Shown one piece after another: positions 2,361 to 14,494 of a stretch of 45,111 nt of DNA (positions within the stretch are counted from its first letter, which is position 1; each line of letters begins with the position of its first letter). The notes beneath the pieces were generated by a model. That model saw nothing but the letters and a program-made list of their open reading frames with translations, was not told where the DNA came from and ran no database searches. Both the position numbers and the translations under genes were made by a program. This DNA is from Candidatus Heimdallarchaeota archaeon (GTDB taxonomy: Archaea > Asgardarchaeota > Wukongarchaeia > Wukongarchaeales > JBHIFL01), in contig JBHIFL010000035.1 of the NCBI GenBank assembly GCA_046761065.1, forward strand, positions 1-45,111. The letters run 5' to 3'.

Positions 2361-4973
2361 ATGAAGAAATCTCTTAATATAGTAGTTGTTATCGCATTTC
2401 TATCCTCAGCCGTATTTGGCGCGCATGCTCCAACATCAGTAAGTACACAAGCTCCCCTACAAATTTCAACAGACTTCACTTTTACTGAAGACATCCATGT
2501 CACAATCGAGGTGATAGCGGATAACCTTGTAATCGACGGTAACGGTTATACACTACAAGGTCCAGGTCCTGAGTTTTCTCCTCATTTTGGTATATACGTA
2601 AAGGGGAGAAGTGGAGTAACCATAAAGAACATCAAGATTAAAGATTGGAGGTGTGGTATCTTCTTCAACCCAGCGTCAAACAGCAGTATATCTGGGAACA
2701 TTTTCACAAACAACCAGCGATGCATCTGGTTATTAAGAGCTACAAACAATAACATCTCAGGCAATACCCTAACAACCAACGATTGGGGCATCATGATTGA
2801 TGAAGGCTCTTCGAACAATCATATATTTGGTAATGTTATAACTGAAATCGCTGGAGATGGTATCTTAATCCAGAATAATTCAAACAACCGTTTCTCGGGC
2901 AATACCATTACAAACACTGAGAATGGCATCTATTTCCAGTATACTTCAAATAACCGCATCACAGGTAACACTATCACAGACAATGAATGGGGTTTACGAG
3001 CCTATGATGTTTCAAACAACTACATTTCAGGCAATACCATCGCAAACAACATAGAAGATGGAATTGGGATCGAAGGTCGAAAAATGAACAACACCATTTC
3101 TAGTAACACAATCACAAATAACGGGGATGGCATAGGGATCGGTTCACCAAACAACACCATCTCGGGCAACACCATTATAGCAAATAGGGATGGCATCGTG
3201 ATCGCATATTCAGACAACTGTATAGTTGGTAACAATATATCGGCAAGCACCTATCGAGGTATTGTTCTCATCTATTCTTATGATAACCTCATTTACCACA
3301 ATAACATCATTGACAACAAAGTACAAGCTGCAGACGATAATCCTACTGGCAACTACTGGTATCATCCGGAGTTATTAGAAGGCAACTATTGGTCGGATTA
3401 TCAGGGCGTAGATGATGGCAGCGGCACGAACAAGCACGCGATTGCGGGTGATGGCATTGGTGACACGGCCATCCCGTGGCCTAGACCCGACTTTGATGCC
3501 TACCCCTATGTTCAGGAAAGTGGCTGGCTAAGCGCGCCTACGTTCGTTACCTTCCATGAAGATCGTTTTGAACCAATGGTTGTAACAGCAGACAATACCA
3601 TAATAGATGGAAATGGATATACACTAGAAGGTCCTGGTTCTGGCACTGGTATCTACATAAAAAATAGAAGCGACGTAATCATCAAGAATCTCACGATCAC
3701 AGGATGGAAAGATGGTATTTACATTGATCCCTGTACCAATATCATAATAATGAACAATATCATAACTGAGAATGAGTTTGGTGTGAATATGGGGGAGGAC
3801 TCCAGTCTCATCAAACTCTCCAATAATACTATCTCCAATAACCAACTAGGGATTTACATGCGGATGTTCTGCAGTGATATCACCGTCTTCAACAATGCCA
3901 TTTCCCACAATCAGGATGGCATTCACATGGAGTATAGCAGCCATGTCACTATCGTTTTCAACACGATCTCGCACAATCACCTTGGGGTTCGCATGTGGCC
4001 TCCCACCCATGTCACTCTTACCGATAATGACATCTTCAAAAATTATGATGGCATTCACATGGTGTACTCTAGCAATGTCACAATATTCAACAATCTCTTC
4101 TCTATGAATGACAATTACGGCATTTACATGGAGAACTGTAGCGACAATACAATCTTTATGAACACCCTTATCGAGAATACCAATCACGTGTTTGACAATA
4201 GAGCGAACCAATTTGACAACGGTACCCATGGAAACTATTGGAGTGGCTATACCGGGAGCGATACAAACGAGGACGGGGTTGGAGAAACACCGTATCTAAT
4301 TGATACCGACTCGATAGATAATTATCCGCTAATACACCCCCTAAAAACGCTCCCAGTCGTTCCTCCAACTGCAAACTTTACATATTCCCCAACTGATCCC
4401 TCAATAAGAGATTTCATCGACTTTATAGACACCTCCACCGATGCAGACGGAAAGATCACGTCTTGGGAATGGGACTTTGGCGATGGAGCGACTTCTATGG
4501 ACCAAAATTCCTCACATCAATATACAAACAAGGGAGAATACATGGTCAAATTGACTGTCACCGATAACGATGGGCTCTCAGCCACTGTAGAGCAAACCAT
4601 CACGCTTCGTAACCTTCCTCCCACCGCGAGTTTCTCCTATTCTCTTAGCAGCCCCACCGTAGGGGAAGAAATCCTATTTACTGATGCATCTTTTGATCCA
4701 GATGGAACAATCTCAGCGTGGGCGTGGGATTTTGGCGATGGGATGACCTCAACTGAGGTGAATCCAACGCACACCTACGAAACACCTAGGTCGTACCCAG
4801 TAACTCTTAGAGTGACAGATGATGAAGGGCTAGAAGGCATCTTCTCCGTAACTATTGAGGTTAAACCAAAACCCACCGAGGAAGAAGCGGCTTTCATTCC
4901 CGGCTTTTCCCTCGAGATGGGGATCTTAGCAGCCATAGCTTTACTTGGGTTGAGAAAACGACGGCAGGTCTAA
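2361..4973 (+). CDS. Secreted surface protein: signal peptide, two NosD/CASH beta-helix regions, 2 PKD domains, PGF-CTERM-like anchor
   Basis: MKKSLN + hydrophobic signal; many 'NNxISGNTIT..N..GI' repeats; two GNYWS motifs; PKD WDFGDG x2; C-terminal FIPGFSLEMGILAAIALLGLRKRRQV. Confidence 0.9.
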   Translation: MKKSLNIVVVIAFLSSAVFGAHAPTSVSTQAPLQISTDFTFTEDIHVTIEVIADNLVIDGNGYTLQGPGPEFSPHFGIYVKGRSGVTIKNIKIKDWRCGIFFNPASNSSISGNIFTNNQRCIWLLRATNNNISGNTLTTNDWGIMIDEGSSNNHIFGNVITEIAGDGILIQNNSNNRFSGNTITNTENGIYFQYTSNNRITGNTITDNEWGLRAYDVSNNYISGNTIANNIEDGIGIEGRKMNNTISSNTITNNGDGIGIGSPNNTISGNTIIANRDGIVIAYSDNCIVGNNISASTYRGIVLIYSYDNLIYHNNIIDNKVQAADDNPTGNYWYHPELLEGNYWSDYQGVDDGSGTNKHAIAGDGIGDTAIPWPRPDFDAYPYVQESGWLSAPTFVTFHEDRFEPMVVTADNTIIDGNGYTLEGPGSGTGIYIKNRSDVIIKNLTITGWKDGIYIDPCTNIIIMNNIITENEFGVNMGEDSSLIKLSNNTISNNQLGIYMRMFCSDITVFNNAISHNQDGIHMEYSSHVTIVFNTISHNHLGVRMWPPTHVTLTDNDIFKNYDGIHMVYSSNVTIFNNLFSMNDNYGIYMENCSDNTIFMNTLIENTNHVFDNRANQFDNGTHGNYWSGYTGSDTNEDGVGETPYLIDTDSIDNYPLIHPLKTLPVVPPTANFTYSPTDPSIRDFIDFIDTSTDADGKITSWEWDFGDGATSMDQNSSHQYTNKGEYMVKLTVTDNDGLSATVEQTITLRNLPPTASFSYSLSSPTVGEEILFTDASFDPDGTISAWAWDFGDGMTSTEVNPTHTYETPRSYPVTLRVTDDEGLEGIFSVTIEVKPKPTEEEAAFIPGFSLEMGILAAIALLGLRKRRQV

Positions 4974-5278
4974 AAAAGTGCCTGCCGGCTTTCTTCGACC
5001 CGTGTTAGTGTAGGAAGTATTCCAAAACCATATGTTTGATGAGCTTCTGTATAGTCTAAATTTATCGTCTCTCATGTTTTAGTTGATGCCCACAACACAC
5101 ACATAATTTTTAGAGAGGAGAAATAAGCACCCTCTTCCACATCCTTACATTCTGTCCGAGTAATCAATTAAAAAATAAAAATATTTCTCCTCAATTCGAA
5201 AAGAATGGATACTATAATCATACACGTTACCCTGACAATTCACAAGGCAATTAAGGAATTTTCTCAGGAGATAAGAAA

Positions 5279-5800
5279 TTGGCTATTTTTCGATTGAAAG
5301 AAAAAATCCCAAACATTGATCCATCCACCTATGTATTCCCCTCTGCTACGCTGATTGGGAATATTGTAGTTGATAAGCAATGTTTCATTGGGCCAGGTGT
5401 TATCCTTCGAGGAGATAAGAATAAGATTACGATTGGTGAGGAAACAATCATCCAAGATCAAGTTGTTATCCATACAGAGGAAGAATTCTCCACAACAATC
5501 GGTAAGCGAGTCCTTATTGGGACAGGTTCGATTCTTCATTGCGAATGTATCGAAGATGATGCCTCGATTGGACTGGGTGTTGTCCTCGGAATGGGCGCCA
5601 AAATAAGAACAGGAGCTACCGTAATTAACGGGAGCTTAGTTCCACAGATGAAAGAAATTGCAGCTCGAACAACTGTCGCAGGGATTCCTGCAAAAGAAGT
5701 TGAAAATGCCAATGTAATAAATATGGCTGTAAATCAATTCAGTATCCTGCGAGTTGACTTGAGAGAGATCTATAGAACTCAGTTAGAGCGCCTACTGTAA
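5279..5800 (+). CDS. Gamma-carbonic anhydrase family protein A (left-handed beta-helix, YrdA/CaiE/PaaY-like)
   Basis: Hexapeptide repeats, LRGD and QD motifs, His65 and His87 present but Thr at 82. AGGAGA RBS before the TTG start. Confidence 0.9.
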   Translation: MAIFRLKEKIPNIDPSTYVFPSATLIGNIVVDKQCFIGPGVILRGDKNKITIGEETIIQDQVVIHTEEEFSTTIGKRVLIGTGSILHCECIEDDASIGLGVVLGMGAKIRTGATVINGSLVPQMKEIAARTTVAGIPAKEVENANVINMAVNQFSILRVDLREIYRTQLERLL

Positions 5801-5812
5801 GAGGAGAGAAAA

Positions 5813-6328
5813 TTGGGGATCTATAGATTAAAGGGTAAATCTCCACTTATCGCTCCTGAGGCATTTATTCACCCTAATGCTACGATCATTGGAGATGTGC
5901 ATGTTGGAAGGCACTGCTTTGTTGCACCAGGGGCAGTACTCAGAGGAGATCTAGGAAAAATCAGTCTCGGAGATCGGAGCAACGTTCAAGATTATGTCAC
6001 GATCCAAAGCAATGCGCAAGATGAGTTTAAGATCGGCACAAACGTAAATTTAGGTCATGGTGCGATTATTTGCTCAGCAAAGATCGATGATCACGCTTCA
6101 GTTGGTATGCGGGCGATTCTTAGTCACGGGTCGATAATAGGTAGGGGAGCAATAGTCGGGGATGGGTGTCTTGTGCTTCCAAGACAAGCGATTCCTCCGG
6201 AAACTTTGGTTATTGGCAGACCGGCAAAGAAAATTCGTCGAATTAAAAAAGGCGATCCTATCAGAGAATTGATTGATCGTTTCGTCAATTGGTACGCACA
6301 AGCACCTAATCTGTACCATTCAAAATAA
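5813..6328 (+). CDS. Gamma-carbonic anhydrase family protein B
   Basis: LRGD, SNVQD, LGH (His82), G-R-P-A-K; Gln65 and Cys87 replace two His ligands. GAGGAG RBS, 12 bp after the gene A stop. Confidence 0.9.
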   Translation: MGIYRLKGKSPLIAPEAFIHPNATIIGDVHVGRHCFVAPGAVLRGDLGKISLGDRSNVQDYVTIQSNAQDEFKIGTNVNLGHGAIICSAKIDDHASVGMRAILSHGSIIGRGAIVGDGCLVLPRQAIPPETLVIGRPAKKIRRIKKGDPIRELIDRFVNWYAQAPNLYHSK

Positions 6329-6502: not shown

Positions 6503-9301
6503 TTGGGAATGGAAAACAAGTGGAGAATTCATTTCAAGCGGCGATGGTTAGCTGTATTAAGTATTATTTTCATTCTGATAATGGTTCAAGAAAATCCTTT
6601 CTCTTGGAAACCTGCCACTCTCGTTTATGGACATTTTCCTGGGAGTACTAGGCTGACAAATACCTTAACGAAGGGGAGGAACCCCATGGCTGCCCCTGGT
6701 GACATACAATGGTGGGTAACTTATGGCGGTCCAGATAGGGATGTAGCCTATACAGCGATCCAGACTACTGACGGGGGGTATGCCCTTGCTGGGGAGACTT
6801 GGTCCTACGCAACACGCGGTTCAGACTTCTGGCTATTGAAGTTCGATGCTGAGGGAGCAAAGGAATGGTCGAGGAGCGTTGAAGATTCTTCTGGAAATGC
6901 CCAAGCAGTCATCCAAACCGCTGATGGCGGGTATGCCATGATTGGTAAGTCTTGGTTTTATGGCACTGGGGTCTTCTTATTGCTAAAACTCGATATTAAT
7001 TTGGAATATCAGTGGGGATGGACCTATGGTGGCTCTTCTTCCTATTATCGAGCCGTCTCAGGCGTTCAAACGGCCGATGGTGGGTTTGCTCTCGCGGGCT
7101 CAACCAAGTTCCCCGGGGCGGATAATGAGGACTTCTATCTAGTAAAGACCGATGGGAGCGGAAAAGTCCAGTGGGAGCGAAGCTATGGCGGCTCAGAGGA
7201 TGAAATGGCTTTCTCAATCATCGAAACGACAGATGGGGGCTTTGTCCTCGTTGGTCGGACTGATTCAATCGGAGCAGGGGGGACTGACGCTTGGTTAGTT
7301 AAGACCGATGCCGAAGGGGAGCCACAATGGATGAAAACTTATGGCGGCTCAGCTGCTGATATAGCACGTGTTGTCATCCAGACTCCTGATGGTGGGTATG
7401 CCCTTGCTGGAGAAACTAGGTCCTATGGGGCGAATCAAGCAAATTTCTGGTTGGTGAAGACCGATGCTAGTGGGACGGTAGAGTGGCAGCGGGCATATGG
7501 CGGTAATGAAGATGAGACAGCATACGCATTAACCCAGACGACCGACGGGGGATATGCCCTTGCGGGAGTTATTTGGTTTGTCCCCCCGATAGATACAAAG
7601 GACGCTTGGTTGGTGAAGACCGACTCTCATGGGATGGTCCAATGGGATCGAACCTATGGCGGTTTGGAGGATGATGGAGCATACTCAATTATCGAGACGG
7701 TAGATGGAGGACTCGCGCTGGCTGGCTATACCGAGTCCTATGGAGCGGGTGGGGCTGATTTCTGGCTGTTGAAAATAGCAACAGAACCGATAACAACATC
7801 TGTTACAACCACAGTCACGATCCCAACTACTATACCTGTCACAACTCCTCCCCTCGAAGGTGACTTTTGGCACCTCAAAACGCCCATGCCGACCCCGCGG
7901 GCTGATCTGGCAGCGGTGGTGGTGAATGGACATATTTATGCGATCGGTGGTTATAACGGAACGCATATTCTGGCGACTATGGAGGAGTATGATCCCACAA
8001 CTGATACATGGCGTACTCGAGCCCCTATGCTTACTGCTCGGGGATATCTAGCGGCAACGGCAGTAAATGGAAAGATTTACGCGATTGGAGGCTGGAATGG
8101 TACTAATTACCTACCGACCGTGGAAGAATACGATCCAGTGACTAATACATGGCGCTCCCGGACCGATATGCCGACCCATCGGTATGGCTTGGCTGTGGTG
8201 GCTATTGGTGGACGAATTTACGCTATTGGCGGTCAGAACGAAGTTGGGCTGGGATACCTGCAAACTGTGGAAGAGCATGATCCTACAACCAACACATGGC
8301 GTAGTCGAGCCAATATGGCGACCCGTCGGTATGGTTTAGCCGCAGGAACGATCCGAAGCCGGATCTATGCGCTTGGTGGATTTAATGCAATAGATGGAGC
8401 TTTGGCGACGGTTGAGGAATATAACCCCATTCTCAACACATGGCGCGGTGTGTTCGACAAACCAACTGCCCAGATCAGCTTAGCGGCAGCCGCCATTGGT
8501 GGGCGCCTTTACGCGATTGGAGGCTTAGAAACTTACCCTTCTCCTATGGAGGAATATGATCCGCTCACTAACACATGGGAGAGCCGTACTCCCCTACCTA
8601 CTCCGCGTTCTGGACTGGCTGCCGCGATGGTGCAGGGACGGATCTATGCGATTGGGGGGAATGACGGGAATAGATGGTTGGGGACGATAGAGGAGTACGA
8701 TCCGCCCTTTTTTGACACTGATGGGGATGGGTTCGCGGATGATGACGAGTTACGCTATGGAAGAGATCCTTTGGTGCCCGAATCGGCTACGGAAACGGAT
8801 ACGGATGGCGATGGGCTCCTGGATACGGAGGAAGTTACAAAATATAGGACCAACCCTTGGATCCCAGACACTGAGGCTGACACCGATGGGGATGGACTTG
8901 CCAATGTTGTGGAAGTCGATGAATATGGGACTAACCCCTCAGTAACGGATACAGATGAGGATGGGCTGGCAGATGGGGCGGAGGTACTCACTTACGAGAC
9001 CAACCCTTTGGTCACAGATACAGATAGTGATGGGTTAGGAGATGGAGAGGAGGTGTTCACATACGAGACCGATCCCTTAGTCAAAGACACCGATGGGGAT
9101 AAATATTCAGATAAAGAAGAAGTTATCGCGGGAACGAATCCTCAGGACCCTGAAGATTATCCTAGAACGACTACCAGCATTGTGACAGGCATTACAACGG
9201 GGAAAACCTCCGCTGTTTTCATTCCAGGGTTTACCTTAGTCGAGTTGCTGCTTGCTCTTGCGTGCCTTGTTGTTATGACACGAAGGACAACAAAGCGGTA
9301 G
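6503..9301 (+). CDS. Surface protein: beta-propeller (TxDGGYALAG repeats), Thr/Pro linker, 6 Kelch repeats, DTDGDG Ca-binding repeats, PGF-CTERM-like anchor
   Basis: Repeated QTxDGG(Y/F)xLAG...WLVKTD units; six IYAIGG...EEYDP..NTW Kelch units; DTDGDGL repeats; C-terminal FIPGF + TM helix + RRTTKR. Confidence 0.9.
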   Translation: MGMENKWRIHFKRRWLAVLSIIFILIMVQENPFSWKPATLVYGHFPGSTRLTNTLTKGRNPMAAPGDIQWWVTYGGPDRDVAYTAIQTTDGGYALAGETWSYATRGSDFWLLKFDAEGAKEWSRSVEDSSGNAQAVIQTADGGYAMIGKSWFYGTGVFLLLKLDINLEYQWGWTYGGSSSYYRAVSGVQTADGGFALAGSTKFPGADNEDFYLVKTDGSGKVQWERSYGGSEDEMAFSIIETTDGGFVLVGRTDSIGAGGTDAWLVKTDAEGEPQWMKTYGGSAADIARVVIQTPDGGYALAGETRSYGANQANFWLVKTDASGTVEWQRAYGGNEDETAYALTQTTDGGYALAGVIWFVPPIDTKDAWLVKTDSHGMVQWDRTYGGLEDDGAYSIIETVDGGLALAGYTESYGAGGADFWLLKIATEPITTSVTTTVTIPTTIPVTTPPLEGDFWHLKTPMPTPRADLAAVVVNGHIYAIGGYNGTHILATMEEYDPTTDTWRTRAPMLTARGYLAATAVNGKIYAIGGWNGTNYLPTVEEYDPVTNTWRSRTDMPTHRYGLAVVAIGGRIYAIGGQNEVGLGYLQTVEEHDPTTNTWRSRANMATRRYGLAAGTIRSRIYALGGFNAIDGALATVEEYNPILNTWRGVFDKPTAQISLAAAAIGGRLYAIGGLETYPSPMEEYDPLTNTWESRTPLPTPRSGLAAAMVQGRIYAIGGNDGNRWLGTIEEYDPPFFDTDGDGFADDDELRYGRDPLVPESATETDTDGDGLLDTEEVTKYRTNPWIPDTEADTDGDGLANVVEVDEYGTNPSVTDTDEDGLADGAEVLTYETNPLVTDTDSDGLGDGEEVFTYETDPLVKDTDGDKYSDKEEVIAGTNPQDPEDYPRTTTSIVTGITTGKTSAVFIPGFTLVELLLALACLVVMTRRTTKR

Positions 9302-13702: not shown

Positions 13703-14494
13703 ATGCTTTCTTCTTTATTATATAGTTTGCTTGTTGTTGGTTTAGTTAGTGTAATTTCCTTAATTGGAGTTTTTGCACTTTCATTGAATGAAGCGACGCT
13801 CGATCGCATTCTCTTTTTCCTAGTAAGTTTTGCATCTGGTGCGATCCTTGGTGCAGCTTTTTTTGATTTATTACCAGAGGCTATCGAATTAGGGAAAGGA
13901 TTTGGCTGGGAATCACAAACCATTGGATATATTGTCCTTGGATTTGTCCTCTTTTATCTTCTAGAAAGATTCATTTATTTTTTCCATGGCGATCCCCATA
14001 AAGCACACTGCCCTCCCCCAGAGGAAACTAGTGGAATTAGCGAATTTGCGATTTTAAACTTGGTTGGTGATGGGGCTCATAACTTTCTCGATGGGATGCT
14101 CATCGCTGTTAGTTTTGGAGTTTCCGTTTCGCTTGGAATCGCCGCAAGTATTGCAATCATCTTTCACGAACTCCCTCAAGAAATTGGGGACTTTTCGGTT
14201 CTCTTGTATGGAGGTTTTTCTCGAACAAAAGCCCTAGTCTTCAACTTCATAAGTGCTCTTACTGCTATAGTAGGAGTGATTTTTGCGCATTTTTACACAA
14301 ATCGAGTCCCCGGATTTAATCCTTTTCTGATCGCGCTCACAGCAGGGGGCTTTATTTATATTGCTGCGGTTGAATTAATTCCCCAGATCCAAAAAGAACC
14401 TCATGTAAAACGATCGGCTCTTCAATTTGTTATTTTTCTACTAGGATTACTCTTAATCTGGTCCTTAGGGATCGTGTTTCCAGAAGTCGAATGA
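13703..14494 (+). CDS. ZIP family zinc/iron transporter
   Basis: FASGAILGAAFFDLLPEA, GDGAHNFLDG and HELPQEIGDF signature motifs; His-containing loop; AGGTGA RBS. Confidence 0.93.
   Translation: MLSSLLYSLLVVGLVSVISLIGVFALSLNEATLDRILFFLVSFASGAILGAAFFDLLPEAIELGKGFGWESQTIGYIVLGFVLFYLLERFIYFFHGDPHKAHCPPPEETSGISEFAILNLVGDGAHNFLDGMLIAVSFGVSVSLGIAASIAIIFHELPQEIGDFSVLLYGGFSRTKALVFNFISALTAIVGVIFAHFYTNRVPGFNPFLIALTAGGFIYIAAVELIPQIQKEPHVKRSALQFVIFLLGLLLIWSLGIVFPEVE

Follow-up and report, generated by a model that had tools for sequence, protein, structure and literature searches.

Two adjacent genes of an Asgard archaeon, designated A and B, encode CamH-type gamma-carbonic anhydrase (gamma-CA) paralogs that have each lost a different part of the active site, and their products probably assemble as an obligate heterotrimer that contains a single, composite metal site, as suggested by the distribution of conserved residues between the two sequences. 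The genes are located in the window (the whole 45,111-nt stretch of DNA that was analysed), which is a contig of a 4.4-Mb genome that is 91% complete. Given the subunit assignment of active-site residues published for Arabidopsis (PMC8290278), the predicted metal ligands and second-shell residues are jointly complete only across the A-B interface. As judged from its residues, the pair is an unfused archaeal form of split-site gamma-CA, and the partition of the second-shell residues between its two members is newly recognised here.

Organization and classification of the gene pair

The positions of the two genes, their putative translation signals, and the predicted active-site residues are listed in Table 1. 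A and B are arranged head to tail and are separated by 306 and 175 nt from the upstream and downstream genes, respectively; with these flanking gaps, the pair resembles a bicistron. The public sequencing runs that were listed are DNA runs of a single hydrothermal-vent study, probably the source of the contig, and no RNA run was among them. TTG start codons are found not only in A (5279) and B (5813) but also at 6503 and in several other neighbouring genes. Among five B genes compared, four start with TTG, and the copy on contig L042 starts with ATG. The 12-bp intergenic distance and the gapless alignment through residue 87 described in the first-pass annotation were both reproduced: BLASTP gave 35% identity between A and B (E 3e-36), with the first gap appearing only at residue 140.

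Table 1. Features of the A-B locus (coordinates in the window; residue numbers follow PhCamH)
Feature	Position	Strand	Remarks
Gene A, CamH-type gamma-CA paralog, 'HxH' type	5279-5800	+	TTG start, 173 aa
Gene B, CamH-type gamma-CA paralog, 'xHx' type	5813-6328	+	TTG start, 171 aa
AGGAG, Shine-Dalgarno-like motif	5266-5270	+	8 nt 5' of the gene A TTG; read from the sequence, putative function
A-B spacer, 12 nt	5801-5812	+	Opens with GAGGAG (5801-5806), putative ribosome-binding site of gene B
A His65, first metal ligand (predicted)	CAT 5471-5473	+	DNA and 1v3w alignment; invariant in 8 A orthologs
A Thr82, middle-ligand position	ACA 5522-5524	+	Ala in the other 7 aligned A orthologs
A His87, third metal ligand (predicted)	CAT 5537-5539	+	DNA and 1v3w alignment
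B Asn57-Val-Gln59-Asp60, second-shell motif	5981-5992	+	Equivalent to gammaCA1 N99/Q101/D102 (PMC8290278)
B Gln65, first-ligand position	CAA 6005-6007	+	Read from DNA
B His82, middle metal ligand (predicted)	CAT 6056-6058	+	DNA and 1v3w alignment
B Cys87, third-ligand position	TGC 6071-6073	+	Tyr in B of L002
B Tyr161, C-terminal helix	TAC 6293-6295	+	Equivalent to plant gammaCA1 Tyr207 (PMC8290278)

Both proteins match the Pfam Hexapep family and have the beta-helix followed by a C-terminal helix, in a chain of ~170-200 aa, by which CamH gamma-CAs are recognised. They align without gaps to PhCamH of P. horikoshii (PDB 1v3w), over 1v3w residues 1-143 for A (E 1.4e-22) and 2-146 for B (E 7.7e-30). 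In NCBIfam, the best models for both were gamma-CA, PaaY, and CaiE, and every score was far below the respective cut-off: A and B scored 93.6 and 123.3 bits, respectively, with the gamma-CA model NF050158 (cut-off, 250 bits), 89 and 124 bits with PaaY (TIGR02287; 319.6), and 80 and 98 bits with CaiE (NF010150; 305). PaaY, CaiE, and YrdA share the fold and length of A and B, and their NCBIfam scores are close to those of the gamma-CA model. A PaaY or CaiE identity was ruled out by the scores and by the gene context, as no paa or cai genes are present near the pair, the neighbours of which encode surface proteins, a DUF92 protein, and a ZIP-family transporter. By fold and sequence, A and B are CamH-type gamma-CAs, and neither chain carries the three His residues per protomer that characterize this class.

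The pair is flanked by genes for large surface proteins (2361-4973 and 6503-9301; a further one is located at 481-1944). These proteins contain NosD/right-handed beta-helix and PKD domains or Kelch and TSP3 repeats, and carry 'PGF'-hydrophobic-basic tails similar to archaeal PGF-CTERM sorting signals. A gene for a ZIP-family zinc transporter (13703-14494, plus strand; 9058-9849 on contig L001) is located downstream, after genes for the DUF92 protein and a 210-aa protein without a recognised family. This arrangement was not counted as evidence of a functional link and may represent plain synteny: it recurs only in the close relative L001, and L042, L044, and L045 lack it within the sequence that they cover.

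Partition of active-site residues between A and B

In PhCamH, the numbering of which is used throughout, His residues are present at positions 65, 82, and 87. Every codon of the ligand sets read at the first pass, i.e. His65/Thr82/His87 in A (HxH) and Gln65/His82/Cys87 in B (xHx), was confirmed in the DNA. In a gamma-CA site, the first and third His are provided by one monomer and the middle His by its neighbour (PMC4519908; PMC7447434; PMC7567890; PMC8290278), and the proposal that the split between A and B tracks this subunit origin of the ligands agrees with published structures (PMC4519908, PMC8290278). The complete site of Arabidopsis is composed of gammaCA1_H130 and gammaCA2_H107 and H135, with gammaCA1 N99, Q101, D102, and Y207 and gammaCA2 R86 located nearby (PMC8290278). 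N99, Q101, D102, and R86 correspond, at a constant offset, to N57, Q59, D60, and R44, respectively, and Y207 corresponds to Tyr161.

The A clade (n = 8) and the B clade (n = 11) were aligned with 109 more distant homologs. In all 109 (100%), His65, His82, His87, Arg44, Asp46, and Tyr161 are conserved, so that the loss of any of the ligands is a rare event; Asn57, Gln59, and Asp60 are present in 93, 94, and 88%, respectively. The active-site residues missing from the A clade are Asn57 (replaced by Ile, Thr, or Phe), His82 (Ala in seven sequences and Thr in the window), and Tyr161 (Arg or Gln; Arg in the window, corresponding to Arg158 in the protein's own numbering). No A ortholog found has His at position 82. 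In the B clade, His65 has been replaced by Gln and His87 by Cys. What remains in A is Arg44, His65, and His87, i.e. all three residues of the two-His face, and what remains in B is Asn57, Gln59, Asp60, His82, and Tyr161, i.e. all five residues of the face that donates the middle His. The second shell (Arg44, Asp46, Asn57, Gln59, Asp60, and Tyr161) is complete in B and lacks Asn57 and Tyr161 in A; the partial loss of the N-x-Q-D motif that had been noticed in A (I57-I-Q-D60, compared with N57-V-Q-D60 in B) is part of this pattern.

With the residues assigned to subunits as in PMC8290278, all the losses in A fall on the middle-His-donor face and both losses in B on the two-His face. The probability of such a face-wise partition by chance is about 0.02, according to a rough combinatorial estimate. 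This second-shell partition is the strongest single argument for the putative split site.

Conservation, linkage, and selection

H65 and H87 are present in all 8 clusters of A orthologs (63-100% identity), and Q65/H82/C87 in all 11 clusters of B orthologs (64-100% identity). A twelfth B ortholog (partial, on L002) has Tyr at position 87, which indicates that Cys87 is dispensable. The A clade is shallow, with ~46% of its columns invariant, and the invariance of its retained His residues is therefore weak evidence by itself; for the same reason, the invariance of Gln65 in B says little alone. The name given by NCBI to the source of B orthologs that are 78-86% identical is 'Candidatus Hodarchaeota archaeon' (an Asgard lineage).

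When every contig long enough to reveal the neighbouring genes was counted, A immediately preceded B in seven cases (the window, L001, L002, L042, L043, L044, and L045). In the window, L001, L002, L042, and L044, the two genes are separated by 12-14 nt that include a GAGGAG-type motif; in L045, they were called with a 4-nt overlap. The flanks of the pair vary between contigs and include genes for NosD/PKD surface proteins, POR, HTH, Pyr_redox_2, and FG-GAP proteins. With the split shared by 8 orthologs of A and 12 of B and the A-then-B order on these contigs, the complementarity is conserved in the manner that the first-pass annotation would require.

Both genes are under purifying selection, as dN/dS values were 0.14-0.20 in 10 of 10 pairwise comparisons. 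A pseudogene or decay reading of either gene was ruled out by these values (about 0.15 for both). Together with the face-wise segregation of the second shell, they support the earlier view that the losses are reciprocal and do not reflect random decay. Charge complementarity between A and B was also considered and discarded, since pI is scattered in both clades without a steady pattern.

Origin of the pair

The nearest proteins outside the A and B clades share 47-48% identity with B, have H/H/H and NVQD, and are encoded by single genes (e.g. in Baldrarchaeia). Among 300 other genomes of the same phylum, the top-scoring matches are without exception H/H/H singletons, and the A-B pair is absent from the two other genomes of the same class. 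A and B form one monophyletic group each in the trees, and both are placed with Asgard H/H/H proteins in one clade (98 SH-aLRT). A single clade of A and B was not rejected by the topology test (p-AU 0.33), and the two may be direct sisters. The sequences are in keeping with a tandem duplication in Hodarchaeota, which would have been followed by reciprocal loss.

A third gamma-CA paralog of the same genome (G000) was identified on contig C40 (34204-34659, minus strand; 1447-1968 of L006). It is of the HHH type, has Ala57 and Glu59 ('AVED'), and belongs to a tree clade other than that of A and B. No beta-class CA was detected in this genome, at 91% completeness, and the A-to-B interface is predicted to be the sole fully canonical gamma-CA site that can be assembled from it.

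Recurrence of the split in fused proteins

An A-clade profile was searched against 1.84 billion representatives, and the best 150 matches were inspected. The search returned one A-clade representative, and many of these 150 matches are two-domain proteins of about 350-365 aa. In nine such fusions, the HxH domain has R44 and lacks N57 and Y161, and the xHx domain has [N/S]QD and Y161; R44 has been lost from the xHx domain in seven of the nine. The HxH domain precedes the xHx domain in eight of the nine, which is the same as the A-then-B gene order. The fusion domains form two mirror-image clades apart from the Asgard clade that contains A and B, which indicates that the split arose independently. 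By analogy, the independent covalent fusion of both half-site types is a good, if indirect, indication that they would work together.

These uncharacterised fused proteins (e.g. the clusters of P0153, P0160, P0143, P0155, P0171, P0214, P0217, and P0274) share with A and B the HxH/xHx split, the order, and the segregation of the second shell. They differ in being single chains of separate origin with an xHx domain that is mostly without R44, whereas A and B are separate ORFs on seven contigs, and B retains R44. Outside the A-B orthologs, no further unfused adjacent split pair was found among the candidates P0189, P0311, and P0200: the gene downstream of P0189 (HYH) is unrelated, P0311 (HSH, Freyarchaeum) is a singleton, and P0200 is located on a 918-nt contig. 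The earlier statement that no stand-alone prokaryotic equivalent had been described holds for the literature, as no paper on heteromeric, split-site, or fused prokaryotic gamma-CAs, nor on Asgard gamma-CAs, was found in a limited library; it does not extend to sequence databases, where fused HxH/xHx proteins are common.

A second fused family (P0175, P0241, and P0247; 347-626 aa) has the reverse order, xHx then HPH. In these proteins, Arg44 is located on the xHx domain and the N-Q-D motif is absent, so that they do not follow the rule of the other fusions. A metagenomic protein of 514 aa (P0133) contains three beta-helix domains (HSH, RHH, and HHH). It may represent a 'trimer' within a single chain, in which either one or two sites would be complete according to the handedness with which the domains follow one another.

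Proposed assembly and alternative explanations

In the assembly that we propose, an Asgard CamH-type gamma-CA would have been duplicated in a lineage-specific manner, and A and B would have lost opposite halves of the interface. The two genes would be co-transcribed and their products co-assembled as a mixed left-handed beta-helix trimer, either A2B or AB2. A complete site would be formed solely where the two-His side of A meets the one-His side of B, with His65, His87, and Arg44 supplied by A and His82, Asn57, Gln59, Asp60, and Tyr161 by B. The B-to-A interface and the A-to-A or B-to-B interface would be dead. A2B and AB2 would alike contain exactly one site, and one Zn or Fe centre would be present instead of three.

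The chemistry would be interconversion of CO2 and bicarbonate or binding of bicarbonate, as in other CamH proteins, with Fe as the metal in an anaerobe. CO2/bicarbonate chemistry is the most likely function in view of family membership, and CA activity has not been demonstrated for many CamH-type proteins (PMC4519908). Heteromer formation, metal binding, and activity are all inferred from sequence. Structure prediction of the complex of A, B, and Zn, which was run without controls, gave a score of 0.27 against a mark of 0.32 and was weighed neither for nor against the assembly.

Precedents for roles other than CA exist in the beta-helix family (PaaY, which is a thioesterase, CaiE, and YrdA). 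If A and B did not mix, each could assemble with itself into a homotrimer, the site of which would be degenerate or altered (two His in A; Gln/His/Cys in B), and play such a role. The similarity of the PaaY, CaiE, and gamma-CA scores, all far under their cut-offs, would suit this reading, as would the invariance of Gln65 and near-invariance of Cys87 in B and the occurrence of orphan HxH-type proteins elsewhere. We nevertheless regard it as unlikely, because the face-exact losses in both proteins, the strict linkage of the two genes in varied contexts, and the recurrence of the split in covalently fused proteins would all be left unexplained, and because the Tyr in place of Cys87 in one B ortholog speaks against an essential ligand. 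B taken separately, which keeps Arg44, the invariant Gln65, and the whole 'acceptor' face, might form a homotrimer, the Gln/His/Cys site of which would be unusual. A different objection accepts the A/B heterotrimer and denies that it is an enzyme; it might sense bicarbonate, CO2, or a metal, serve as a scaffold, or bind nothing. Some forms of CcmM are non-enzymatic, as is the gamma-CA domain of Polytomella complex I. Activity has not been demonstrated for the plant and algal gamma-CA modules, the Polytomella module is metal-free (PMC8290278, PMC7447434), and CamH lacks Glu62 and Glu84, the proton-shuttle residues of Cam (PMC4519908). However, activity is known for certain CamH-type proteins (TeCcmM209, PMC4519908), and the composite site keeps the full set of catalytic residues under purifying selection, which makes a non-enzymatic heterotrimer quite improbable.

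The partner of B (or of A) could also be the unlinked HHH paralog on C40, in which case the adjacency of A and B would be no more than a trace of tandem duplication. A complete canonical site would also arise if the two His came from the C40 protein and the middle His from B. This arrangement is nevertheless highly improbable, as it is A-B that is conserved as a unit on all contigs found, with its conserved ribosome-binding spacer, the C40 paralog falls in a different clade, and A, which is constrained to the same extent as B, would be left without a role.

Comparison with known systems

The structurally characterized CamH homotrimers (PhCamH, 1v3w; T. thermophilus, 6ive; G. kaustophilus, 3vnp; and B. 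cereus, 1xhd) are similar to A and B in size (~170-175 aa), in having a left-handed beta-helix and a C-terminal helix, and in the positions of the ligands and second shell. They carry three His per chain and form three equivalent sites, whereas a complete site of A and B would need two different chains. Cam of Methanosarcina thermophila (1thj, 1qrg) is the prototype of the interface site, composed of His81 and His122 together with His117 from the neighbour (PMC4519908). In contrast to A and B, Cam is an exported homotrimer with Glu62 and an acidic loop containing Glu84, and A and B match it only at E values of 1e-8 to 1e-13.

The gammaCA/gammaCAL module of complex I in the mitochondria of plants, algae, and protists (7aqq, 6x89, and 7a23; PMC8290278, PMC7447434, PMC7567890) is a trimer of degenerate paralogs with one complete site. 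The parallel drawn at the first pass with this heterotrimer extends, by sequence pattern, to the same division of residues as that proposed for A and B, with the middle His and N/Q/D/Y on one subunit and the two His and Arg on the other. The two systems also differ. The plant module has N-terminal amphipathic anchor helices, which are absent from A and B (both start at the beta-helix core, at 1v3w residues 1-2), and at least one plant gammaCA chain retains all three His; the loss is fully reciprocal only in A and B. No special kinship of A and B to the plant chains was seen, the plant scores being no better than the bacterial ones. Membership of A and B in a complex I module was rejected on the grounds of this lack of closer kinship and the absence of anchor helices and complex I context.

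Implications

Active sites at interfaces are a textbook setting for the dependence of paralogs on each other through complementary losses, and to our knowledge clean natural cases in prokaryotes are few. The pair described here is small and soluble and has an intact canonical outgroup, and would thus be a testable case of such interdependence. If the proposed assembly is correct, A-B would be the first stand-alone heteromeric gamma-CA and a simple model for the one-site heterotrimer of plant and protist complex I. The Asgard group that contains A-B is close to the origin of eukaryotes, and no sign of direct descent between A-B and the complex I module was seen. More tentatively, composite-site gamma-CA heteromers could be a widespread and undescribed prokaryotic architecture with at least 2-3 origins, as an operon in Hodarchaeota and as gene fusions elsewhere, in which a homotrimer with three sites was converted to a one-site assembly of two half-site subunits. 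This would be the same end state as that of the mitochondrial complex I gamma-CA module, and repeated convergence of this type would imply that the beta-helix fold is subject either to a neutral ratchet or to selection that favours one site. The label 'Gamma carbonic anhydrase family protein' should be treated with caution in annotation, as it may conceal chains that are unable to act alone.

Other gamma-CA paralogs in Asgard genomes

Four unlinked gamma-CA paralogs were identified in Candidatus Freyarchaeum deiterrae (CP147778; L050 4001-4537, L054, L055, and L056): H-S-H with Phe161, H-H-R with Tyr161, H-H-H, and AED-H-H-H. The H-S-H and H-H-R copies are partly complementary, like A and B, and are located ~1.2 Mb apart; the existence of such unlinked singletons without the middle His indicates that proteins of this kind need no adjacent partner. 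The AED/HHH type, found in L056 as well as on C40, may represent a distinct Asgard subfamily. In two genomes of the same order as that of the window (L038 in G014 and L040 in G002), gamma-CA-like copies have Tyr/Lys/Gln and no ligand His. These copies retain Arg44, Gln59, Asp60, and Tyr161, and a canonical HHH gene is present elsewhere in the genome.
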